DNA from: an uncultured Candidatus Peribacteria bacterium
Lineage (GTDB): Bacteria > Patescibacteriota > Gracilibacteria > UBA4473
Length of the DNA stretch: 39,785 nucleotides
Direction of reading: 5' to 3'
Assembly (NCBI GenBank): GCA_964468965.1
Contig: CAYXXA010000005.1
Coordinates: 1 to 39,785 of the forward strand
Positions 2,452-34,129 of this stretch are shown here, one piece after another. Position 1 is the first letter of the stretch, and every line of letters begins with the position of its first letter. The notes under the pieces are model-generated. The model was not told where the DNA came from. It saw only the letters and a list, made by a program, of their open reading frames with translations, and ran no database searches. Position numbers and translations under genes: made by a program.

Positions 2452-3357
2452 TTAATTTCGAGCATCAGACCAATTTTTCCAGGTTACAAGTGCTGGTGCC
2501 GCGATAAATATTGACGAATAAGTCCCTACTACAATACCTAAAGTTAAGGCTAAAATAAAGTAGAAAATAGACTCAGCACCATAAAAGAGCAAACCAAGTA
2601 GTGGAAGAAGGGTTGATATTGACGTAAACAACGATCGTCTAAGTGTCTGTTGTATTGATTTTTCTACCGTGTCCTCAAAGGTTTCAGATCCTTTCTGTAA
2701 TCGAATATTTTCTCTTACTCTGTCCAGTATAACGATGGTATCATTGATAGAAAACCCAAGTGTTGCTAGTAGTGCTGTAATAAATGGCAGATCGAGTTCT
2801 ATTCCTGAAACAGCGCCAAGTACGGTGAAAATACCCAAAACAATAATAATATCGTGGAAAAGAGCAATAATCGCCACGCCTCCAAATCGCCATGGATTGA
2901 TAGCCGCTGGCACTTTACGAAAAGCAAAAGCGACAAATAGAATCATCCCAAGTAACGCAATCCCGATCGCCCAAAAGGCTTTTTCTTTAAAACTTGCCCC
3001 AATATTTGAATCTACTTTTCTAAATGATTTTTCTGTAAAATCACCAACCGTGTTTTTTAGATCTGAGGCAATTGATTGAATAACCTTATCATCAAGATCT
3101 TCTATGGTAATCAAATAGGTACTATCATCTGATTTTTGAATTTGAACGCCTTGAGTAAGAGTTGATTGTTGTGCAAAGAAGTCTTTTAAATCCTTTGTTG
3201 TTATCGTTTTATCCTGAAATTGAATATCCCATCTTGTTCCTCCTGTGAAATCCAATCCAAGATTTAATCCAAAAGTTACTATCGCTAATAAGCTAGCCAA
3301 AACCAACGTTATAGAGATAGTAAACCAAAGTTTTCGAGTTTTTGTAATATTGATCAT
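2452..3357 (-). CDS. secF: Protein translocase subunit SecF
   Basis: GLNLGLDFTGG, ALFHD, LGFSINDTIVILDRVREN, GTYSSIFIA. Confidence 0.97.
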   Translation of the reverse strand: MINITKTRKLWFTISITLVLASLLAIVTFGLNLGLDFTGGTRWDIQFQDKTITTKDLKDFFAQQSTLTQGVQIQKSDDSTYLITIEDLDDKVIQSIASDLKNTVGDFTEKSFRKVDSNIGASFKEKAFWAIGIALLGMILFVAFAFRKVPAAINPWRFGGVAIIALFHDIIIVLGIFTVLGAVSGIELDLPFITALLATLGFSINDTIVILDRVRENIRLQKGSETFEDTVEKSIQQTLRRSLFTSISTLLPLLGLLFYGAESIFYFILALTLGIVVGTYSSIFIAAPALVTWKNWSDARN

Positions 3358-3374
3358 GAGTATTAAATTATCTA

Positions 3375-5573
3375 TTATTTTTTAGCTTTTCTTTTACGAA
3401 CTTTCGCTCCAGCAACCTTTTTCCCAATCTCTGATTCAGCAACTCCAAAAAGTGCTGGTTTTTGTAATGGTTTAAAGAGAAGGAGAAATCGTAGTAAATT
3501 TCGTGAAACAATAATTGCGGTAAACATAGAAAGTAGTGTTCCAACGATAAGAGTAACCGCAAACCCTTTGATAACGGAACTCCCTAGAAAGAAAAGAATC
3601 ACACAAATAAGTAATGTCGTGGAATTTGAGTCTCGGATAGCCGTCCATGCTCGCTCAAAGCCAAGATCAATTGATTGCGAAAGCGTTCGTCCTTTTCTGA
3701 GTTCTTCTTTCATTCTTTCAAAGATAAGGATATTTCCATCAACCGCTAACCCTATGGAAAGCGCGATTCCAGCCGCTCCTGCTAAAGAAAGAACGATTGG
3801 TCCACCAAAGGCTTCTGGCCAAACTTTTAAAATAGCGATAAAGAGAACCGTATAAATAACAAGGGCAATCGAAGCAATTAGTCCAGGAAATCGGTAGAAC
3901 AAAATCATAAAAATCATCGTGGCAAATAAACCAAGAGCTCCAGCCTTTAAACTTTTTTCCAACTGATCTTTTCCTAGTTGTGCCTGAATAGTTGTCTGCC
4001 CTGAAAGCTTCACCGGTGCATCAATCGCCCCAAGATTCAAACGGTCAGCTAAATCATGGGCTGAATTAAAGTCAAAGCTTCCTGTGATTTGTGCGTCACG
4101 TCCAATAATTTGCTCTCGCACTGTGGGTTGAGTTATCCAATTCCCTCCAACTTTAATCCCTAGTCTACATGGCTGTTTTTGATCTTCACTTCCCCCACAA
4201 CTTCGACTCGCTACATGTTTCGTCAATTCCGCAAACATATCACCCCCCTCTTTATCAAATCTCAAATTCACTAAAGGTTGCCCTACTTGATCATATCCAA
4301 CCGTTGCTAGTTCTAATTGAGATCCGCCAAGTGGTGTTTTTACCCAGCTTACATTTGATTTATCCCAAACGATCATATCGTAAGTATACTTCGGTTCTGT
4401 AACCGTTTTTTTCTCTTCTTTGGTAACTCCCGTAACCTCAATAACATGAAAACCAAAATCAGTTTCAACTACATGATCGATCAACTGAGGGGCATCAACC
4501 GCAAATACGGCTTCTTCAAACGGTGGCACCATTTGCCCTTTCCCAAATTCTCCAAGCTCACCATAACTTCGTTGAGCCGCTCCCTCCGTACTTAATTCTT
4601 TTGCTAAATCACTAAATTCTTCCGTTCCTTCTTCTTTCAATTTTGCAAGTATTTCTTCTGCCTTAGCCTTTGCCTCTTCTTTTGTTTTGTATTTTACATC
4701 CTCACCCGCCTTCATTGCCCCTGTGTAACCAAATAGAATATGTCGTGCCTTTCGTTTCGCTTCTACATTTTTTTCTCGTTCAACCGATTCGACTTTCGTT
4801 ACCTTTGCCAACGCGAAAACATCTCGTGCATAGGGCAACCCATCAAACTCTATTTTCCCATCCTCTGTTACTTTGTACTCTGGTTGAATCGTCGTTTCAA
4901 TAACCTGTGGAACAATATTCCCTTCCCCTGTTTTTGTGATTAGTTCCGCTAATTTTATATCTGATATTTCATCGCTAAAGGTCGGTCTAAATGATTCATA
5001 GGTAACCAAATCATCTTCTTTGGCTAGTTCTTTCCCCTTCGGTGTAAAAGTTTCTGGTGTTAGATTTTTGAGAATAGCGGCTATTTTAAATTTAAGTTTT
5101 TTAACTAAATCTGGATTTTCTTCAAAAAACTCTAGTCGATTATCTTGTTCTGCATCCCTTTTGGCTTTTTCTACATCCGTATTTGGAGGCATTTGAATCA
5201 ATACATGCTCTTCTTTCTCATTATTAACAAAAACAGAAGATCGTTTTACCACGATTTCACCAACCCCAGCTGGATTCACTCTTTTCTCCAAAGCATCACG
5301 AACTGACTCTACAATTTGATTAACATTGACATCATTTTGTGGATCATCATCACTATTTTGAGCTTTGATTTCTGTTAAATCCACACGATAATCCAATTCC
5401 GTCCCCCCTTGAAGGTCGAGCCCAAGGGCGATTTTAAATTTTTCTAAGGTTTTGGTGATTGAACTTTCTGGTCCAAATTGCTGACGATAGAAAGAGGCTG
5501 GTGCTGCCAAAATAGCAGCTATCAATGTAATAGCCACCACTATAATAAAACGATTGATAATCTGTTGTTTCAT
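3375..5573 (-). CDS. secD: Protein translocase subunit SecD with inserted parvulin-type PPIase domain
   Basis: LGLDLQGG, GLAVDGNILIFERMKEE, AIRDSN.TT, KGFAVTL. Internal ARHILF...GELG.F.KGQMVPPFEEAVF...ETDFGFHVIEV at about 4431-4760. Confidence 0.95.
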   Translation of the reverse strand: MKQQIINRFIIVVAITLIAAILAAPASFYRQQFGPESSITKTLEKFKIALGLDLQGGTELDYRVDLTEIKAQNSDDDPQNDVNVNQIVESVRDALEKRVNPAGVGEIVVKRSSVFVNNEKEEHVLIQMPPNTDVEKAKRDAEQDNRLEFFEENPDLVKKLKFKIAAILKNLTPETFTPKGKELAKEDDLVTYESFRPTFSDEISDIKLAELITKTGEGNIVPQVIETTIQPEYKVTEDGKIEFDGLPYARDVFALAKVTKVESVEREKNVEAKRKARHILFGYTGAMKAGEDVKYKTKEEAKAKAEEILAKLKEEGTEEFSDLAKELSTEGAAQRSYGELGEFGKGQMVPPFEEAVFAVDAPQLIDHVVETDFGFHVIEVTGVTKEEKKTVTEPKYTYDMIVWDKSNVSWVKTPLGGSQLELATVGYDQVGQPLVNLRFDKEGGDMFAELTKHVASRSCGGSEDQKQPCRLGIKVGGNWITQPTVREQIIGRDAQITGSFDFNSAHDLADRLNLGAIDAPVKLSGQTTIQAQLGKDQLEKSLKAGALGLFATMIFMILFYRFPGLIASIALVIYTVLFIAILKVWPEAFGGPIVLSLAGAAGIALSIGLAVDGNILIFERMKEELRKGRTLSQSIDLGFERAWTAIRDSNSTTLLICVILFFLGSSVIKGFAVTLIVGTLLSMFTAIIVSRNLLRFLLLFKPLQKPALFGVAESEIGKKVAGAKVRKRKAKK

Positions 5574-5782
5574 GTCTTTTATGAGGAAAAATTAAGGATT
5601 CTGCTGGATTTTAGAATATTTTTAGTGGTCGTCAAATTGAAAAAGCAAAGTTCTTTCATTTTCTACTTATTCGTATTCTTTTTCTAAAAAATTAGAGTTA
5701 TTTCTCCATATTTTATTTTTTATATTATTATCTTGGCACGATAAAAATTTATCAGTAAAATCCAAATAACCCCATAAATTAA

Positions 5783-8332
5783 ATGTCCCAACCTTTTGTA
5801 AATCTTCATACACATTCTTTTTACTCTATCCTCCAGAGCATGATGTCTCCACAGGATATTTTGGAAAAAGCAAAAACATTACAGTGTCCCGCCGTAGCAC
5901 TTACCGACAACGGTGTTGGATACGGACTGATTGACTTTTATAAAAAAGCCGAAAAGGTAGGTAACATAAAACCTATCCTTGGTGTAGAGCTCGCTATCGC
6001 TAAAGATTCTCGATTTGAGAAACGAACAGGAATTGATGGAAACGAGGGATATTTAGTTTTGATAGCACAAAACTTTAAAGGTTATGAAAATCTACTAAAA
6101 CTTATTTCCATTGCCCAGCTTGAAGGCCTTTTTCAGCAACCAAGAATTGATTGGGAATGCCTATCACAAAATCAGGAAGGGCTTATCGCTCTTAGTGGTG
6201 GAACAAACGGACTCTTAGGAAAAGAACTTCAAAATAATAACCCAGATCGAGCTGAAACTTATCTAAAAAAGTGTATTGAAATCTTTGGCCAGAAAAACTT
6301 TTATCTTGAATGTGTTGCTAAGCCTGGAGAATCACAAAAAAATCTAAATCTATGGAATCTAATACAGGCTCAAAAAAATAATTTAGAAATTGTCGTCAGT
6401 TCTGATGCTCGATTTGCCGATACAGATGATGAAGAAGCCGCTGACACCCTCTACTGTATTGGAAAAAACTATACCTTATCTGATCCCCATCGTGAAAAAA
6501 TAATGCATCAAGGACATTTCAAATCATGGCAAGAAATATCCCAAGAACTTGATTATATAGAAGCCGATATTTTAGAAAAAGCCCGTCAGAATTCTCTTGA
6601 TATTGCCAAAGACATTGATCTGAAATTGGAATTTAACCAATCCCTCCTCCCTCATTTTGAAGTGGAAAAAGGTGAAACTGAAGCTTCACAGCTAGAAAAA
6701 AATTGCCAGGCTGGATTTATAAAACGAGGATTTAATAAAATCCTTTCCGCCAAACAACAACAAACCTATCAAGACCGACTTAAATACGAACTTCAAATTA
6801 TCGGAAGAATGGGATTTGATGCTTATTTTTTGATCGTTGAGGACTTTATGAAATTTGCGAAGGAAAGCGGTATTGCGGTTGGACCAGGCCGTGGATCTGC
6901 TGCAGGTTCACTGGTTTCTTATCTTTTGGAAATTACTAATATTGATCCTATTGAATACGATCTACTCTTCGAACGATTTTTAAATCCAGAACGAATCTCA
7001 ATGCCTGATATCGATATTGATTTTTCTGATGAAAGACGAGATGAGGTTATGAATTACGTTATTGAAAAATACGGTATCGAAAAAGTTTCTAAAGTCTGTA
7101 CCTTTGGAACACTAGCCGCGAAAGCCGCTCTCAAGGATGTTGGTCGGGCTCAAGGTGTAGATTTTAGCGAAATGAATGCCATGACCAAAGTCATGCCCAA
7201 TACACCTGGATTTAAACTAAAAGACGCTGAAGAACTTTCTGAATTTAAAGATTTATTAAAAAAGAAACCACATCTTAACAAAGTCCTAGCCATTGCCAAA
7301 AAATTAGAAGGCTGTGTTCGACATGTTTCCGTTCACGCCTGTGCGGTAATTATTGGCGCTGATGATCTGAGTAAGTTTTGCCCGATCCAGTGGGCACCTG
7401 GGGCTGAAGAATTAAAAATAACACAATACCCTTATGAACAATTAGAGTCTATCGGCCTTCTAAAAATGGATTTTCTTGGACTTCGAAACCTTTCTATTAT
7501 CGAAAAGACCGTTAATAATATTCGTCATAGTACTGGCCAAGATATTGACCTCAATACGATTCCCATTAATGACAAAAAAACATTCGAAACGACCTTTGCC
7601 GCGGGCGAAACAACAGGTGTTTTTCAGTTTGAATCAGCTGGAATGCGACGATATCTTAAAGAACTTAAACCAACAGAATTTGAGGATTTAGTCGCTATGA
7701 ATGCCCTCTATCGTCCCGGTCCGATGGAGTACATTCCGCAATACATTGAAGGAAAACATGACCCCAAAAAGGTAAAATACATGCATCCTGCACTTGAGCC
7801 TATTCTGAATAAAACCTATGGGATTGCGGTTTATCAAGAACAAGTTCTCCGAATTGCACGAGATTTTGCTGGTTTTTCCCTTGGCGAGGCCGATATCCTT
7901 CGAAAAGCAATTGGAAAAAAAATTGCGTCAATTCTGAACGAACAACGACAAAAAATAATCGATGGAGCGTTTAATAAGGGGTTTGATAAAAAAACCGCGG
8001 CTAAAATATTTGATGAAATCATCGTTCCCTTTTCTGGATATGGTTTCAACCGAAGCCACGCTGTTTGCTATGCTCGAATTGCCTATGAAACCGCTTACCT
8101 TCGTGCCAATTATCCCGTGGAATTCATGGCCGCCATGATGACCACCGACCGAAATAATACCGATCGAATTGTTCTTGAAATGAATGAATGCCAGGCGATG
8201 GGAATTGATGTTTTACCACCTAGTATCAACGAATCGGGAAGCTACTTTACCGTCATTTGTGATAATCATGACCAGTTAACAATTTCCTCCGAAAAACCTG
8301 ATTTGGAAGCCGTAAAAGGTTCAGGAAAATAA
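5783..8332 (+). CDS. dnaE: DNA polymerase III alpha subunit, C-terminally truncated or split (PHP + catalytic core)
   Basis: GPGRGSAAGSLV, FERFLNPER.SMPDIDIDF, KMDFLGL, GVFQFES, ALYRPGP, YGFNRSHA. Stops at aa 849, shortly after LPPSINES..FTV. Confidence 0.93.
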   Translation: MSQPFVNLHTHSFYSILQSMMSPQDILEKAKTLQCPAVALTDNGVGYGLIDFYKKAEKVGNIKPILGVELAIAKDSRFEKRTGIDGNEGYLVLIAQNFKGYENLLKLISIAQLEGLFQQPRIDWECLSQNQEGLIALSGGTNGLLGKELQNNNPDRAETYLKKCIEIFGQKNFYLECVAKPGESQKNLNLWNLIQAQKNNLEIVVSSDARFADTDDEEAADTLYCIGKNYTLSDPHREKIMHQGHFKSWQEISQELDYIEADILEKARQNSLDIAKDIDLKLEFNQSLLPHFEVEKGETEASQLEKNCQAGFIKRGFNKILSAKQQQTYQDRLKYELQIIGRMGFDAYFLIVEDFMKFAKESGIAVGPGRGSAAGSLVSYLLEITNIDPIEYDLLFERFLNPERISMPDIDIDFSDERRDEVMNYVIEKYGIEKVSKVCTFGTLAAKAALKDVGRAQGVDFSEMNAMTKVMPNTPGFKLKDAEELSEFKDLLKKKPHLNKVLAIAKKLEGCVRHVSVHACAVIIGADDLSKFCPIQWAPGAEELKITQYPYEQLESIGLLKMDFLGLRNLSIIEKTVNNIRHSTGQDIDLNTIPINDKKTFETTFAAGETTGVFQFESAGMRRYLKELKPTEFEDLVAMNALYRPGPMEYIPQYIEGKHDPKKVKYMHPALEPILNKTYGIAVYQEQVLRIARDFAGFSLGEADILRKAIGKKIASILNEQRQKIIDGAFNKGFDKKTAAKIFDEIIVPFSGYGFNRSHAVCYARIAYETAYLRANYPVEFMAAMMTTDRNNTDRIVLEMNECQAMGIDVLPPSINESGSYFTVICDNHDQLTISSEKPDLEAVKGSGK

Positions 8333-8408
8333 ATATTATTTATCTTTTTTTAAAGAAGTATCGTACTTTTTGGATTTTTTATAAATTTTCATTTAAACTG
8401 TACCCTGC

Positions 8409-9491
8409 ATGAAAAAATACAGTATTCTACTCCTTATTATCATTGGTTTGACCTTTACCGCACAAGCACGTGAAGCTTTACGTGCTGATGATGTCATCAA
8501 GGTTCGAGATGGTAAAGTCGTGGACACAGGAATCTTGAGTGACGAAAAAGGAACCATCTTCCTCGAGTTTATTAAAGGTGATTTTGTAAACTATGCGAAA
8601 GATAAACAACCCTTTACAGGAGAAATTCTTCCCCCTGCCATTATTGATAAACCCTTAAAACTACCACGATACCGAATGCGTGAAATCCTAAGTTTTGAAC
8701 TCTTAACCGATAACGTTGAAACCGTTACGTTTGTTGATCGGTATTCCCTTATGCACCCAAAAGAATATCTTCGAACAACGTTGGCTAACCCAGATGGACT
8801 AATCCATGGAAGCGGTATAAAATTTCTCACACGAATCTACGATGAAGACAAGTTTGGACTTCCTACACTTTGGGTACTAGAAACCGAAAAAGAAAGCGTT
8901 CTAAAAACAGAACGAAAAAAGTATTGGAAAAAAATTGGAGGAAAGCTTGTTGAAACCGAAGAGAGTGGCGTAAAAGTTTTCTCGGCTGTACTAAATCGAA
9001 CAGGTGTTTATGGTTTATTTGATGAAGATCCAACCCCCTACTATAGTCCAAACACACCTCTAGAAACGGTTCAAAAAGTAGAAGCCTCACCTTATCCTAG
9101 TGTTGTGCCTCAAGCTCCAGCACTACCTATTACTCCACCACAAACCAATACGTCTCAAGCCACTGACGAAGATTTCTACTTTGACGAAAATGACAACCTT
9201 CAACTCGTTCCCGCTGTCAACGAACGTAAAAATAATGTACCAGTTATCGATAACCGAATCATTCCGGCTATTCAAACCCCTATTGAAGTAGTCCCCGCGG
9301 TCGATACGCCGAAAGTCCCACCCGTAAGTGAGTTTCAAAATTTACAATCTAATAATCCTAATATCAAAACTCTTCCAGTTACAGGAGCTAGTTTAACACA
9401 AACACCATCTTCTCATTTTCCTTTTGTTCTACTGCTTGCTTTTGGACTACTTGGCGGAAGTTTTTATTTGGCCTTTAAAAAACAATATTAG
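8409..9491 (+). CDS. Secreted surface protein with LPxTG-type sorting signal
   Basis: Signal peptide (MKKYSILL...AQA), Pro/Thr/Val-rich linker, LPVTG (9372-9386), hydrophobic helix, KKQY tail. Confidence 0.8.
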   Translation: MKKYSILLLIIIGLTFTAQAREALRADDVIKVRDGKVVDTGILSDEKGTIFLEFIKGDFVNYAKDKQPFTGEILPPAIIDKPLKLPRYRMREILSFELLTDNVETVTFVDRYSLMHPKEYLRTTLANPDGLIHGSGIKFLTRIYDEDKFGLPTLWVLETEKESVLKTERKKYWKKIGGKLVETEESGVKVFSAVLNRTGVYGLFDEDPTPYYSPNTPLETVQKVEASPYPSVVPQAPALPITPPQTNTSQATDEDFYFDENDNLQLVPAVNERKNNVPVIDNRIIPAIQTPIEVVPAVDTPKVPPVSEFQNLQSNNPNIKTLPVTGASLTQTPSSHFPFVLLLAFGLLGGSFYLAFKKQY

Positions 9492-9535: not shown

Positions 9536-10501
9536 ATGAATAATAAACGAGACTTTAAAACTTTTATAAATCACTGTCTTCATAAGCCAGAAACAAGAGT
9601 CGCTAAATTTGTAAATGGATCGCTGGTATTTCTTATTATTTTTTCTATCGCGGTTATTCCACTTCACTTCCTACCAGAAATGTCATGGGCTAAATCTTAT
9701 CTTATAACCTTTGATAAAATTACCATCACGGTTTTTACGATTGAATACTTCTTGCGAATTTGGGCAGCCGACCGAAAAGCAGCCTATGTATTTTCCTGGT
9801 GGGGTCTTATTGATCTTCTTGCTATACTTCCTTTCTATCTAGCAAAAATAGGACTTATTAGTCGTCCAGAAATCTTTATGGCGCTTCGAATACTTCGAAT
9901 ACTCAAGCTTGGGAAAATTTATGAAATCGAACGAAATGCTATTTCTGAGTGTGCGACTAATGAACATGGCGAATTTCGTGTACTTGACGATGAGAATATT
10001 GAACGCGTTGTCCAAAAGCACCCATTAGTTTTCATGGCAAAACTCATTATGCCACTTGTCATGACCACTGTTGGGTTAACGATCATTGTTTTTTTTCAGG
10101 GTATGTTTATCGCTACAATCATTGCTATCTTTTTCTTTATTTTTGCCGCCATCTTTTTCTTTAAAGCCTGGTTAGATTTTAATTATGATGTTATTTATAT
10201 CACTAATAGACGGGTCATTCTCCAAAACAGAGAGCTTTTTGGAGCTATTACCAATGACATTACCTATGAATCCATAACCAATGTCAAACCAAGTAATATT
10301 GGTATTTGGCATTTTCTTTTTGGATTTGGAAGTGTTTGTATTGAAACCGCCTCAGTAGATGGGGCACTCCATTTTCATGAGGCCCCAAATCCTCATGAAA
10401 TTGTCCGACATATTACGAAAAACAGACAACTGGTTCTTGAAAGACGTAAAGTTGATAACATTCAATTTCCATCAACTAAAAACGATAAAAAAACTAGCTA
10501 A
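9536..10501 (+). CDS. Voltage-sensor (S1-S4) domain fused to 2-TM + bacterial PH domain; no pore
   Basis: S2 VFTIEYFLRIW, S3 IDLLAILPFY, S4 LRILRILKLGK; then DDENIERVVQKHP, two TMs, YITNRRVI...ITYESITNV...FGFGSVCIETAS (bPH_2-like). Confidence 0.8.
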   Translation: MNNKRDFKTFINHCLHKPETRVAKFVNGSLVFLIIFSIAVIPLHFLPEMSWAKSYLITFDKITITVFTIEYFLRIWAADRKAAYVFSWWGLIDLLAILPFYLAKIGLISRPEIFMALRILRILKLGKIYEIERNAISECATNEHGEFRVLDDENIERVVQKHPLVFMAKLIMPLVMTTVGLTIIVFFQGMFIATIIAIFFFIFAAIFFFKAWLDFNYDVIYITNRRVILQNRELFGAITNDITYESITNVKPSNIGIWHFLFGFGSVCIETASVDGALHFHEAPNPHEIVRHITKNRQLVLERRKVDNIQFPSTKNDKKTS

Positions 10502-29067: not shown

Positions 29068-29970
29068 CTAAATCGTCATACTTCCCCACCCAAGTTTATT
29101 TCTCAATGTTTTAAAGTAATGCGCTTCTCGCATTCGGATAAAATTAGCTCGTCGAGTCGCTGTCTGAATCGACACTTCATCGGTCGATTTGAGTGAAAAA
29201 TGAATCTGTCCGTCAACCGTCATGGAAATAGAATCCACTCGTGAATCAAACCCCATATGAATAATTCGTTTTCCGGGTAAAACAATAGGACGATGCGTAA
29301 GTGTATGCGGTGCCACTGGCGTGATAAGTATCGCTGAAAGAGACGGTTCGACAATCGGCCCACCAGCACTCATAGAATACGCGGTTGATCCGGTTGGGGT
29401 TGAAAAAATAAGCCCGTCACTTCGATACGTCGAAAGCAATCGTCGTCCAACTTTTACATTAAAATTGGTGAGCCGTGCCAACCCTCCATGCCCAAAAACT
29501 ACTTCATTCAATGCATAAGCACGAAAGATTCGTTCACGTTTTCCTCTACTATTTTTCCGATAGATAAAAACTTTAACAAGACTTCGTGTATCTAAGTGAT
29601 ACTCACCTTTAAATATTTTTTTCAGTTCTTTGATCGCATTGTCTGGACGAAGCTCAGACAAAAAACCAAGAGTTCCAAAATTGATACCTAAAAATAAACC
29701 ATCCTTTTTCTGTAAGGTTCTCATCATTTTGAGCAGTGTTCCGTCACCGCCTAAACCAATTTTGAGATCATATTTTTTCTCGTCATTGATCAGTGGAATC
29801 GTATTCTTGAGCATCGAAACCGTCCGAATATCACCCGCAATATGCTTAACCCCTTTTGAGTGAAAAAATCGAAGCATTTCACGAATAAAACGAACCTCTT
29901 CTTTTTCTTTTTGTGGTTTATTGTGACAATAAATCGCCACCGAGCGAAACTTTTTCAACTGATTCCCCAT
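29068..29970 (-). CDS. nadK: NAD(+) kinase
   Basis: GGDGTLL, GINFGTLGFL, ALNEV, DGLIFSTPTGSTAYSMSAGGP, DG, KLGWG. Confidence 0.96.
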   Translation of the reverse strand: MGNQLKKFRSVAIYCHNKPQKEKEEVRFIREMLRFFHSKGVKHIAGDIRTVSMLKNTIPLINDEKKYDLKIGLGGDGTLLKMMRTLQKKDGLFLGINFGTLGFLSELRPDNAIKELKKIFKGEYHLDTRSLVKVFIYRKNSRGKRERIFRAYALNEVVFGHGGLARLTNFNVKVGRRLLSTYRSDGLIFSTPTGSTAYSMSAGGPIVEPSLSAILITPVAPHTLTHRPIVLPGKRIIHMGFDSRVDSISMTVDGQIHFSLKSTDEVSIQTATRRANFIRMREAHYFKTLRNKLGWGSMTI

Positions 29971-30021
29971 CACTTTGATTGTGGAGAAAATACCAAATCC
30001 GTCAATTAAATAGCCCTATAA

Positions 30022-31197
30022 TCACGAATCCATAATATGAGGATTCTTTTTGAGAATAATCCTAAAAATAAACGGAAAAATAACCGTTGTCGCAATCGCC
30101 ATAAAAACAATCGCGGAATACAAATCTTTTGAGATAATCCCTGCCGACAACGCAATATGGGCAATCACCAGTTCCATCACGCCACGAGAATTCATCCCCC
30201 ATCCAATGAGATGTAACTGCTGCCACGAAAGATCGGTAAAAGGCTTAACCAAAAACGTCCCCAATAATTTCCCAACAATGGCGGTTACCAAAACAATAAT
30301 CGTTAATATCGGTGCGTTTAAAAAAACATGATAATCAAAACTCAGACCAATGTTAACAAAGAAAAAAGGAACAATAAACGCAAAAATAAAAAGACGTAGA
30401 TTTCGAGATTCTATTTCTCGATTTTCTTCTTTAAAAAATGATTTCTGCAAAATAATCCCCGCAATAAAAGCACCTAACAGTGACCCCAACCCTACAAATT
30501 CTGAGAAAATAGAAATCGCAAGTCCGATAATAATCATCGCACTCAAGAGGGGAATCTGTCCCTCATTTTTTTGAATTTTCTGAATCAACTGGGGAATGAA
30601 AATAAAAGAAAGAAGTAAAAATAAAATAAATAAAACCATCCTTATTCCAAAAGTAGCGAGTCCAACCTCCCCCATAGATTGATGAGCAAAAAACAAAATC
30701 ACACTCAAAAATATAATCTCAAAGACATCATCAAAAATACCAGCTCCCAAAATAATGCTCGCCAACTTGGTCTTCATTTTCTTCATTTCGAGGAGTAATG
30801 CCACCGTTGTCCCCTCAGCCGTAACGGACAAACACGCACCTAAAACCACCGATCCCTTCCACGACATCCCCAAAAAATATCCCAAAACAAGTCCAATCAC
30901 AAAAGGAACAACCGCAGCCGACATCGCTATCAAAAAGGCTGTTTTTTTATTTTTTTTCAGCTCATTAAGATTGAGTTCAAATCCTGTCAGTAGGAGTAAA
31001 AAAATGACCCCCAACCCCGAAAAAGTATCAATAACCGTTAGGCTTTCTCCCGTAAATAAGTGACTTAATAAAGGAATTGTCAACAATAAACTAATCGTTA
31101 ATTGCCCGATTACTCGTGGATAGTGAAACTTTCGTCCGATTTCTGCACCGATAAAAGTTAATAACAACGCAATTGTAATACTCGAAAGTGTATCCAT
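30022..31197 (-). CDS. Cation:proton antiporter (CPA2/NapA-like)
   Basis: About 12 TMs, LGVIFLLLLTGFE, SVTA, GAGIFDD, GAFIAG, PFFFVNIG, GMNSRG; TGA stop. Confidence 0.92.
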   Translation of the reverse strand: MDTLSSITIALLLTFIGAEIGRKFHYPRVIGQLTISLLLTIPLLSHLFTGESLTVIDTFSGLGVIFLLLLTGFELNLNELKKNKKTAFLIAMSAAVVPFVIGLVLGYFLGMSWKGSVVLGACLSVTAEGTTVALLLEMKKMKTKLASIILGAGIFDDVFEIIFLSVILFFAHQSMGEVGLATFGIRMVLFILFLLLSFIFIPQLIQKIQKNEGQIPLLSAMIIIGLAISIFSEFVGLGSLLGAFIAGIILQKSFFKEENREIESRNLRLFIFAFIVPFFFVNIGLSFDYHVFLNAPILTIIVLVTAIVGKLLGTFLVKPFTDLSWQQLHLIGWGMNSRGVMELVIAHIALSAGIISKDLYSAIVFMAIATTVIFPFIFRIILKKNPHIMDS

Positions 31198-32749: not shown

Positions 32750-34129
32750 ATGCAAAAAGCGTATCAAAATATCGAATCCATTGCCGGACCAATCCTTGTC
32801 GTAGAAGGCGTTGAAGGCGTAAAATACGAAGAACTTGTCGAAGTAAAAACCCAAGACGGTTCTGTTAAGATGGGGAAAGTACTTACCATTGACGGATCAC
32901 GAGCCCTTGTTCAGATGTTTGAATCGACACAAGGACTTTCTACTTCAGGACTAGAAGCTAAGTTCCTTGGGAAGATCGCAACTCTTGGGGTATCACCTGA
33001 TATGCTTGGACGAGTTTTCAATGGAGCTGGAAAACCACTTGATGGTGGAGCTGAAATTTTACCAGAAAAAGAAATCGATATTTCTGGGCAAGCCATCAAT
33101 CCCTACTCACGAAACTTCCCTTCTGATTTCATTCAGACTGGAATTTCAACAATTGATGTGATGAACACACTCGTTCGAGGTCAGAAGCTTCCTGTGTTTT
33201 CAGGATCAGGACTCCCTCATGCTGAACTCGCAACACAAATCGCTCGGCAAGCCAAAGTGAATGACGGATCAGAATTTGCCGTTGTCTTTGGCGCAATGGG
33301 AGTAACTTTTGAAGAAGCGATGTTCTTCCAAAAAGAATTTGAACGAACCGGAGCGATCGAAAACGCAACACTCTTTATCAATACCGCAGCCGATCCAGTA
33401 GTGGAACGAATTGCCGTACCACGAATGGCACTTTCTTTTGCGGAATACCTAGCTTTCGAAAAAGATAAACACGTTTTGGTTATCCTTACCGATATGACCA
33501 ACTACGCTGAAGCCCTACGAGAAGTATCCGCTTCACGAAAAGAAGTTCCTGGTCGACGAGGTTACCCTGGATACCTCTATACCGATCTTGCGACTATCTA
33601 TGAACGAGCTGGACGAATCAAAGGACGAGATGGATCGGTAACACAAGTACCAATTCTTTCGATGCCAGAAGACGATATTACACACCCAATCCCAGATCTA
33701 ACAGGATATATTACAGAAGGACAGTTTGTACTGGACAGAGGTCTTCATCAAAAACAAATTGCCCCTCCCGTTGACGTACTAAAATCTCTTTCTCGACTTG
33801 CTGGTGCGGGTATGGGAGAAGGAAAAACGCGAGAAGACCACAGTAAGCTCAAAGATCAACTCTTTGCCTGCTATGCTCGAGGAAAAGATGTACGAGAACT
33901 AGCTGTTGTGCTTGGAGAAAGCTCGCTTTCTGATGTTGATAAAATCTACCTTGCCTTTGCGGATAAATTTGAAAAAGAATTTGTAGGACAAGGCTTTGAT
34001 AAAAATCGAGACATTATCGAGTCACTTGAACTTGGATGGGAATTACTACGACCATTCCCAATAACAGAACTAAAACGAATCAATCAAAAAACTATTGATA
34101 AATTCCACCCTGATCACAAAAAATCATAA
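32750..34129 (+). CDS. atpB: V/A-type ATP synthase subunit B (stand-alone)
   Basis: [94 protein letters not shown]; no Walker A, as expected for V/A subunit B (NtpB). Confidence 0.96.

Follow-up and report, generated by a model that had tools for sequence, protein, structure and literature searches.

Introduction

In cyanobacteria, the DnaE (alpha) subunit of the replicative polymerase is encoded by two unlinked genes whose products a split intein splices together (Caspi et al. 2003, cited in PMC3919608). The DnaE of the Peribacteria genome described here is likewise encoded by two unlinked genes, but its pieces carry no intein halves and the cut lies elsewhere. In its account of alpha, the 2014 survey (PMC3919608) presents the subunit as a single chain, with the cyanobacterial intein split as the sole exception named there, and reports that fragmented sequences were rebuilt; a 2026 survey (PMC12926913), in the corresponding account, also presents a single chain and discarded truncated sequences. 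No paper on an intein-free split DnaE in bacteria was found in our literature search.

Three further systems invite comparison. Single-chain enzymes of the DnaE1 type (Escherichia coli, 2HNH and 5FKU; Thermus aquaticus, 2HPI and 4IQJ; Mycobacterium tuberculosis, 7PU7) have the same domains in the same order, whereas here the subunit consists of two polypeptides from unlinked genes, cut in a loop insertion that the solved enzymes lack. DnaE3 forms whose chain lacks both OB fold and C-terminal domain have been described (Timinskas et al. 2014, PMC3919608). In that survey's account of them the C-terminal module is missing, whereas here it persists in a gene of its own that also encodes the HhH region and clamp motif. 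Finally, the "fractured genes" (Dassa et al. 2009, as summarized in PMC2677866) likewise include a polymerase gene in pieces; in the present case, by contrast, the gene belongs to a cellular chromosome, its pieces are far apart, and no endonuclease or cassette lies between them.

Results

The window, i.e., the whole stretch of 39,785 nucleotides that was analyzed, contains an intact dnaE reading frame, hereafter the N piece (Table 1), which comprises the PHP domain, palm, thumb, fingers and the first hairpin strand before the HhH region. The motifs PDIDID, KMDFLGL and GFNRSHA are all present in its translation, and residues D409, D411 and D563 are invariant across 22 aligned sequences. Residues 3-848 match positions 4-835 (3-837 at the widest) in the 1146-position NCBIfam model NF004226, leaving ∼310 model positions without a counterpart, and the N piece alone scores 1006.3 bits, just reaching the equivalog cut-off of 1002. 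This ORF lacks the HhH region, clamp motif, OB fold and C-terminal domain; no Pfam match to an OB fold was found in it, and its match to Pfam HHH_6 covers just model positions 1-20 of 90. A preliminary description of the window had proposed that DnaE ends some 300 aa early with its catalytic core intact, and the ORF, the motifs and the NF004226 coverage agree on this. Exactly 25 residues separate LPPSINESGSYFTV from the end of the N piece. The 360-aa ORF downstream of the spacer is unrelated and has no Pfam match, and the same downstream genes follow the N piece in a related genome (G001).

Table 1. Features of the two dnaE pieces (window positions unless a contig is named)
Feature	Position	Strand	Description and basis
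dnaE N piece	5783..8332	+	849 aa, ATG start, TAA 8330-8332 included; ORF, NF004226 and Pfam
PHP domain	5804..6313	+	residues 8-177; PF02811, E 2.1e-42
Palm/NTPase domain	6719..7480	+	residues 313-566, catalytic aspartates of PDIDID and KMDFLGL; PF07733, E 1.6e-97
Finger domain	7487..7978	+	residues 569-732; PF17657, E 1.1e-62
YFTV	8243..8254	+	residues 821-824, with no conserved element after it in the N piece; alignments with full-length relatives
Tail, part 1	8255..8284	+	residues 825-834, I-C-D-N-H-D-Q-L-T-I; aligns with full-length loops and other N-piece tails
Tail, part 2	8285..8329	+	residues 835-849; stop-loss extension, this genome only
AT-rich spacer	8333-8408		76 nt, separates the N piece from an unrelated 360-aa gene
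dnaE C piece	G000:C6:29611-30615	-	335 aa; NF004226 match, E 4e-55

The end of the N piece was checked against independently assembled sequence. A separately assembled 5368-nt contig of run X1, possibly the source sample, covers positions 8035-8900 with 0 differences, and positions 8311-8461 are covered by a 151-nt contig of X2, another sample from that study, which shows 1 difference, in the spacer (T>C at 8343). Since contigs of both samples span the stop codon and the spacer, the junction is not an assembly artefact. Two further species of the genus also have their stop at this point.

The preliminary description reported no frameshifted continuation, and indeed the continuation sits on another contig. 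A separate C-terminal ORF, for which it advised a search of the genome, was found there (the C piece). This ORF has its own ATG, with an in-frame TAA immediately before it, and begins M-N-Q-V-T-K-K-IRFGLTAIKGLGE, so that its start lies 7 residues ahead of IRFGL. Encoded in it are the HhH region, the OB fold, the C-terminal domain and a clamp motif, QIGLF, and its match to NF004226 (positions 819-1110) abuts that of the N piece. Pfam HHH_6 is divided between the two: the N piece accounts for positions 1-20 and the C piece for 19/21-88. Alignments of the C piece's structural model to the Pol III alpha chains 4IQJ, 2HPI and 5FKU extend over 335-345 columns and fall in their C-terminal third, and QIGLF aligns with the internal clamp motif; it is the sole clamp motif found, the N piece having none of its own. 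Judged from this model, the C piece is a complete C-terminal third of Pol III alpha. When the C piece was modeled alone, pLDDT was below 50 at residues 1-8 and DSSP assigned no strand over IRFGL (residues 8-12).

No second dnaE and no polC were found in the draft genome (G000, 77 contigs), in which DnaX and DnaN are present; the full-length dnaE elsewhere that had been considered at the outset was not found. The N and C pieces are not co-transcribed: they sit on two different contigs, with 5.7 kb or more between either piece and the nearest contig end. The genes flanking the two pieces encode a SecD-like protein, a membrane protein, a T2SSE ATPase and an FtsX-like protein. We rejected the idea that the C piece marks the ancestral dnaE locus, the ATPase upstream being a 560-aa paralogue of the PilB/GspE type. 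The gene order in relatives is PilT-PilT-dnaE; in G000, what comes after the PilT pair (start of contig C15 and end of contig C35) is a methyltransferase, a tRNA and purF, and no dnaE remnant was found there. Promoter and terminator scans returned counts no higher than in shuffled sequence, and with overall counts at that level a 10-of-12 site was seen at 5733-5761 ahead of the N piece and none ahead of the C piece.

The cut corresponds to about residues 827/830 of E. coli alpha and lies inside a lineage-specific loop insertion of a beta-hairpin, which is predicted to be disordered. YFTV, which aligns to about residues 822-827 of E. coli alpha, is the first strand of this hairpin, and the partner strand, IRFGL, stands at the start of the C piece. 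A full-length relative, when modeled, has the loop between strands 828-830 and 851-854, and its pLDDT is below 50 at residues 833-848. The loop is 5 aa long in distant relatives, with a median of 22 aa and a maximum of 193 aa in 96 full-length proteins. From this length range (5-193 aa) and the low pLDDT we conclude that the loop is permissive.

The tail that follows YFTV has two parts. By its alignment, the first is what is left of the opening half of the loop insertion seen in this family. At its end, G001 reads ACAATT-TAA and this genome ACAATT-TCC, and the N pieces of the nearest relatives end 14-15 residues earlier, with the stop after Q-[LM]-x-[ILM]. The second part, which probably has no function, contains LEAVKGSGK, in which the preliminary description saw a faint echo of the HhH motif. 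This was not borne out: since relatives stop 14-15 residues earlier and the TAA of G001 is TCC here, these residues are stop-loss read-through of the former 3′ flank. Across relatives, N-piece tails are 2-25 aa long and variable, and C-piece heads are 3-9 aa long. No conserved complementary ends or clasp were found at the cut, the ends varying among relatives; because these ends are short, variable and not obviously complementary, nothing has been added to hold the pieces together.

A comparison with relatives, also suggested at the start, located the same breakpoint in members of the genus and in metagenomic proteins. Both pieces are held by two of the three species of the genus. In G002 they are on other contigs and have different neighbors, and G001 has an N piece with its stop at the same place, while no C piece was found in that genome (88% complete). 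In metagenomes, N pieces of 813-869 aa made up 9 of 119 other proteins among the matches listed, and stand-alone C pieces made up 14 of the 31 other proteins found; for the C-piece count, 18 of 32 proteins were inspected individually. One stand-alone C piece (P0013) is on a 1.3-kb contig that shows the end of an unrelated gene and a 60-nt spacer upstream. Two distant proteins, P0266 and P0219, might also be stand-alone C pieces. Candidate splits in G032, which belongs to another family, and in G029 were rejected, their breaks being at contig ends, as were the short frames of G048, G054 and G056, which are contig-edge fragments or include the fingers. Many of the best 150 proteins in a search of representatives were short and started with MGIxVLPP; these are probably partial gene calls.

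Split forms fall in two clades, A (with this genome) and B. Clade-B pieces of both kinds were located on contigs of 10,847 and 587,375 nt. AU tests against a single split clade gave p 0.041 for the N region and p 0.226 for the C region, so that the trees favor, only marginally, a second, independent fission at the same loop. A different split of the same enzyme, between PHP and palm at model position about 293/300, was found throughout a TGA-recoded family of the same class; it too is intein-free, has its pieces at separate loci and is fixed in its lineage.

We also compared substitution patterns in the two pieces. For the N piece pN was 0.142 and pS 0.717, and for the C piece pN was 0.221 and pS 0.756, with pS saturated in both. 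With pN so far under pS, purifying selection acts on both pieces, and the relaxed selection that had been considered at the outset is seen in neither. Identities of the N and C regions were 78.3 and 68.5% for the split proteins, compared to 78.7 and 69.6% and 77.8 and 62.9% for pairs of full-length proteins. The split has persisted long enough for synonymous sites to saturate.

Discussion

Both dnaE genes are intact, they are the only parts of a C-family polymerase in the genome, the cut is recurrent, and intein parts are absent. Of the three explanations offered in the preliminary description, the two-piece DnaE is the right one, rather than a minimal paralogue or a rearrangement or misassembly. 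We put at roughly 80% the probability that this Peregrinibacteria/Peribacteria-like CPR bacterium produces its sole replicative DnaE from unlinked genes as two polypeptides, which reassemble non-covalently. The gene was cut inside the disordered loop insertion, between the hairpin strand ending in YFTV and the one beginning with IRFGL, and the products may reassemble through the native intradomain interface. By homology with single-chain enzymes, the YFTV strand of the N piece would pair in trans with the IRFGL strand of the C piece. The C piece would then be the catalytic core's only link to clamp, DNA and clamp-loader; in studied enzymes, the C-terminal domain binds tau. Weighing against this reading, the ends at the cut show no obvious complementarity, and no C piece turned up in G001.

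An unlikely alternative is that no stable enzyme forms, the N piece working by itself as a minimal polymerase and the C piece serving as a separate accessory for clamp, DNA and tau, with only transient contact at the fork. E. coli alpha crystal constructs ending at 910-917 do exist as folded proteins, the cut bears no docking tags, and DnaE3 forms without the OB fold and C-terminal domain appear in the pages of PMC3919608 devoted to them. However, the cut runs through a single Pfam domain (HHH_6) and a single hairpin, both strands of which are conserved in all split forms, the N piece lacks a clamp motif of its own, and the rate at which each piece evolves is that of its counterpart region in single-chain relatives.

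It is far less probable that the halves are covalently joined after expression by protein or RNA trans-splicing. The cyanobacterial DnaE, with its split intein, provides a precedent, at least in the terms in which PMC3919608 describes it, but neither piece has a match to Hint or intein families in Pfam at E ≤ 0.01, and the tails (2-25 aa) differ among relatives, that of G002 ending 3 residues past YFTV, with heads of 3-9 aa. As stated in the preliminary description, the break also differs from the cyanobacterial one, which we take to lie just before the C-F-N-K-S-H motif of the fingers: GFNRSHA (residues 754-760) is whole inside the N piece, and the cut follows ∼65 residues later, after YFTV at residue 824. 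Such tails and heads are far shorter than the shortest known split-intein halves. Least probable of all is an assembly artefact, or a decaying gene whose function has passed to another polymerase, since, although the genome is a draft of 77 contigs, contigs of two samples cross the stop and spacer, the cut recurs across three species and in many metagenomic proteins, both pieces have a pN far under their pS, and no other C-family polymerase is present.

Taken together, these data indicate that a bacterial replicase tolerates a cut at a particular surface loop, and that an essential, sole replicase can come from two unlinked genes whose products nothing joins up again. More tentatively, and at odds somewhat below even, the loop before the HhH region may be a recurrent natural fission point, in which case one CPR class would have cut DnaE at least three times without inteins (twice at the loop, in clades A and B, and once between PHP and palm, fixed in a family), and the replicase may be modular enough to run as separate subunits. 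Annotation pipelines, and checks of completeness or marker genes, will label such genes "partial" or fragmented where they expect a protein of ∼1150 aa. The split offers a natural experiment on which intradomain interface suffices to hold the core to the clamp, the DNA and the tau tether, on whether the tether can act as its own subunit, and on how a disordered loop insertion primes a gene for fission. If the reading of a recurrent fission point and a modular replicase is true, a free C piece could stay on the clamp while catalytic cores exchange, and such polymerase switching would be a mode closed to a single-chain alpha.

A DnaE divided between two contigs

The source assembly is a draft of 1.06 Mb in 77 contigs, 97% complete, and the window is the entire contig C5. 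It carries an 849-aa open reading frame (the N piece), whose opening residues resemble the start of relatives' DnaE and in which Pfam places the PHP, pol III alpha palm/NTPase and finger domains. Against the NCBIfam model NF004226, residues 3-848 correspond to positions 4-835 of 1146, with 1006.3 bits (cut-off 1002). Between LPPSINESGSYFTV and the stop stand 25 residues; the 76-nt spacer beyond it leads to a 360-aa ORF in which Pfam recognizes no family. Wherever it can be checked, the preliminary description of a DnaE ending about 300 aa early was correct.

A whole-genome search with NF004226 gave three matches: the N piece (positions 3-837), a stretch of contig C6 inside a 335-aa open frame (the C piece; positions 819-1110, E 4e-55) and an OB-fold at 12.9 bits, judged irrelevant. 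A separate C-terminal DnaE frame, which had been proposed as something to look for, is therefore present. An in-frame TAA lies immediately 5′ of its ATG, and Pfam finds an OB fold and HHH_6; since HHH_6 positions 1-20 lie on the N piece and 19/21-88 on the C piece (Pfam's own match spans 21-88), the cut divides this domain. QIGLF, at residues 96-100, aligns to the internal clamp-binding motif in alpha chains of known structure. The AlphaFold model of the C piece (mean pLDDT 79.8) aligned with the C-terminal third of 4IQJ, 2HPI and 5FKU over 335-345 columns, the last beta-alpha-beta-beta-alpha domain included.

As for further polymerase copies, PolC is absent: the PolC-model search of the genome matched only the N piece and an exonuclease-like domain in a 753-aa frame, and the NF004226 search yielded no additional dnaE. 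DnaX and DnaN were both found. Because each piece lies at least 5.7 kb from its contig ends, with other genes on either side, the two cannot form one operon.

Location of the DnaE pieces in this genome and in G034, a genome of a TGA-recoded family of the same class
Feature	Location	Strand	Description
dnaE N piece	window 5783..8332	+	ORF, 849 aa; starts MSQPFVNLHTHS; TAA 8330-8332
dnaE C piece	G000 (this genome), contig C6, NF004226 match 29680-30609	-	335-aa ORF; start MNQVTKK-IRFGLTAIKGLGE
G034 PHP piece	locus L056, 1882..2820	-	~312 aa
G034 palm-to-OB piece	locus L057, 1770..4670	+	~966 aa

Other genes of the window were also recorded. A 732-aa SecD-like protein (3375..5573, minus strand) contains, ahead of its P1 head, an inserted peptidyl-prolyl isomerase (rotamase) domain of the PPIC type and is followed by SecF (2452..3357). 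In a 321-aa protein (9536..10501, plus strand), the first half of an ion-transport (voltage-sensor-like) domain is fused with a bacterial PH domain; this protein is conserved in G001, another species of the genus, beside that species' own N piece. At 32750..34129 (plus strand) lies a gene of the ATP-synthase alpha/beta family whose C-terminal domain is of the V/A type; it stands alone, with no other ATP-synthase subunit among the ORFs scanned beside it.

The cut falls in a variable loop

The F-T-V and I-R-F-G-L strands are 4-5 residues apart in full-length DnaE from the class's other families, and in full-length DnaE from this organism's own family an insertion of variable size separates them (median 22 aa, maximum 193 aa, n=96). 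In the model of the full-length DnaE of comparison genome G006 (1177 residues, mean pLDDT 84.4), the insertion occupies residues 833-848 at pLDDT < 50, flanked by strands 828-830 and 851-854. The N-piece tail (I-C-D-N-H-D-Q-L-T-I..) aligns to its first half and the C-piece head (..T-K-K) to its last residues, with ~6-8 middle residues missing between them. Compared with solved structures, YFTVIC of the N piece corresponds to E. coli alpha ~822-827, and the C piece's K7 falls on residue 830 of that protein; the equivalent T. aquaticus positions are ~883-886.

Ten other N pieces (that of G001 and nine more, including that of G002, the third species of the genus) end 2-18 residues past the I/V/T after the F-T-V/I strand in tails unrelated to one another, G002's terminating ..YFTVITQ, and C pieces begin 3-9 residues ahead of IRFGL. 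The longest tail is that of this genome; the N pieces of its closest relatives terminate in Q-[LM]-x-[ILM]. Since ACAATT-TAA in G001 aligns with ACAATT-TCC here, the final 15 codons extend the frame, by loss of the stop, into what was once flanking sequence. The LEAVKGSGK of this extension had been read as a faint echo of the HhH motif, a likeness that is best taken as chance.

The same cut in relatives and metagenomes

The first comparison covered 41 genomes: this one, two of its genus, 22 of the family and 16 of other families. Among the family members of other genera, 21 of 22 gave one long DnaE match; in G015 the match is broken by a contig end. The breakpoint, which the preliminary description had suggested seeking in relatives, is present in both other species of the genus as well as in metagenomic N and C pieces. 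In G002, the N piece covers model positions 4-823 before its stop, and a second contig carries a C piece with its own ATG (positions 821-1120). G001 has the N piece with its stop, and no C piece was found in this 88% complete genome. Across all 43 family genomes (25 genera), a stand-alone C piece occurs only in this genome and G002; three other short frames proved to be contig-edge fragments. Class-wide (401 genomes), there was no further clear split among the 150 matches listed, beyond which lie 242 more.

Stand-alone C pieces account for 14 of the 31 other metagenomic proteins of 184-587 aa (47-86% identity; 18 of 32 sequences read for this count), some on contigs as long as 475 kb, and N pieces of 813-869 aa for 9 of 119 other proteins among the matches listed for the N piece. 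Equal nucleotide sizes, rather than coordinates, suggest that N and C pieces share one contig in three cases (248,758, 587,375 and 10,847 nt). Upstream of the C piece P0013 lie the end of an unrelated gene and then a 60-nt spacer. Two full-length DnaE proteins of relatives, P0046 (1382 aa) and P0062 (1389 aa), carry extra AAA/kinase-type families in precomputed Pfam annotation (PF13671, PF13207, PF13238) and may be fusions with a neighboring kinase-like gene.

In an N-region tree (832 columns, LG+G4, quick search), this genome, G002 and the metagenomic proteins P0034 and P0036-38 formed one clade (SH-aLRT 100), joined by P0059 (94), with full-length P0039-41 as sister (98). P0128, P0043 and P0076 formed another (95), nested within a different full-length clade (95). 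Constraining all ten N pieces to one clade cost 48.5 log-likelihood units (p-AU 0.041). In C-region trees (337-339 columns), P0011 and P0016, which pair with N pieces of the second clade by equal-sized contigs, stood apart from the core clade, and a single clade of all 15 C pieces was not rejected (p-AU 0.226). From these two results, two fissions at the same loop are favored, short of shown. The second split clade comprises N pieces P0043/P0161, P0076/P0157 and P0128 and C pieces P0011 and P0016/P0155, placed by equal sizes on common contigs of 10,847 and 587,375 nt; it may represent an independent, perhaps still adjacent, fission.

A different split in a TGA-recoded family

DnaE of a TGA-recoded family in this class (read under table 25) is cut elsewhere, again without an intein: one locus encodes a PHP piece and another a larger piece comprising core, HhH region and OB fold. 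Both were separate matches in 39 of 41 sampled genomes (30 genera; G034 and 40 further), none of which had a match across model positions ~293-300. The distance between the two pieces in single-contig genomes runs from ~4 kb to 335 kb. In two sister recoded families, the DnaE frame is contiguous (13/13 and 12/13 genomes).

How the two products may work together

We infer that the two products reassemble through the interface shared in single-chain enzymes, with the hairpin completed in trans, because both of its strands are conserved in all split forms, because the IRFGL strand is absent from the C piece modeled alone (residues 1-8 at pLDDT < 50; DSSP assigns no strand over this stretch) and because the only clamp motif, OB fold and presumed tau-binding domain reside on the C piece. 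For this last reason, processive, coupled synthesis would need both pieces. The main rival, a looser, transient partnership, has a small probability beside such reassembly. Covalent joining is unlikely; no Hint or intein family matched either piece (E <= 0.01).

Selection, gene order and assembly

Decay of dnaE is likewise unlikely. Between this genome and G002, pN and pS were 0.142 and 0.717 for the N piece (827 codons) and 0.221 and 0.756 for the C piece (331 codons); as synonymous sites are saturated, omega is only bounded at roughly <= 0.1. N/C identities were 78.3/68.5%, compared to 78.7/69.6 and 77.8/62.9 in full-length pairs at equal divergence.

Neither piece has the same neighbors here as in G002, and the genes downstream of the N piece are common to this genome and G001. 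The relatives' conserved PilT-PilT-dnaE order is broken here: where they have dnaE after the PilT pair, locus L059 (contig C35) has an 830-nt stretch without long ORFs (6599-7426), which contains a tRNA-like sequence and in which tblastn found no dnaE remnant. An assembly artefact, with reads failing to span the junction, is unlikely, as contigs of two runs of one study span the stop and spacer; one run is possibly the source of the assembly and so not independent support. A further contig of run X1 (record 4; window 8167-8221, depth 2, 5 differences) departs from the window sequence at 8221 and probably represents a related organism of that sample.

A two-gene variant of a known enzyme

Two intact, selected genes jointly hold every alpha domain, with nothing to splice them. 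This DnaE would work like canonical DnaE1 but lacks its single-chain architecture, and it is neither a split-intein DnaE nor a fractured gene. Split archaeal family-B polymerases are a distant precedent.

We found no account of an intein-free split bacterial DnaE in the main-text portions of the literature covered. The portion of a 2014 survey covered (PMC3919608) mentions no cases beyond frameshift fragments, which were "reconstructed", and the intein split of cyanobacteria; Patescibacteria go unmentioned in the main-text portion of a 2026 survey (PMC12926913), and the portion of PMC8080830 covered holds no relevant passage. Taken together, the DnaE of this organism, a new form of a known enzyme, is a real, conserved, intein-free two-gene replicative polymerase whose pieces would assemble with one another.
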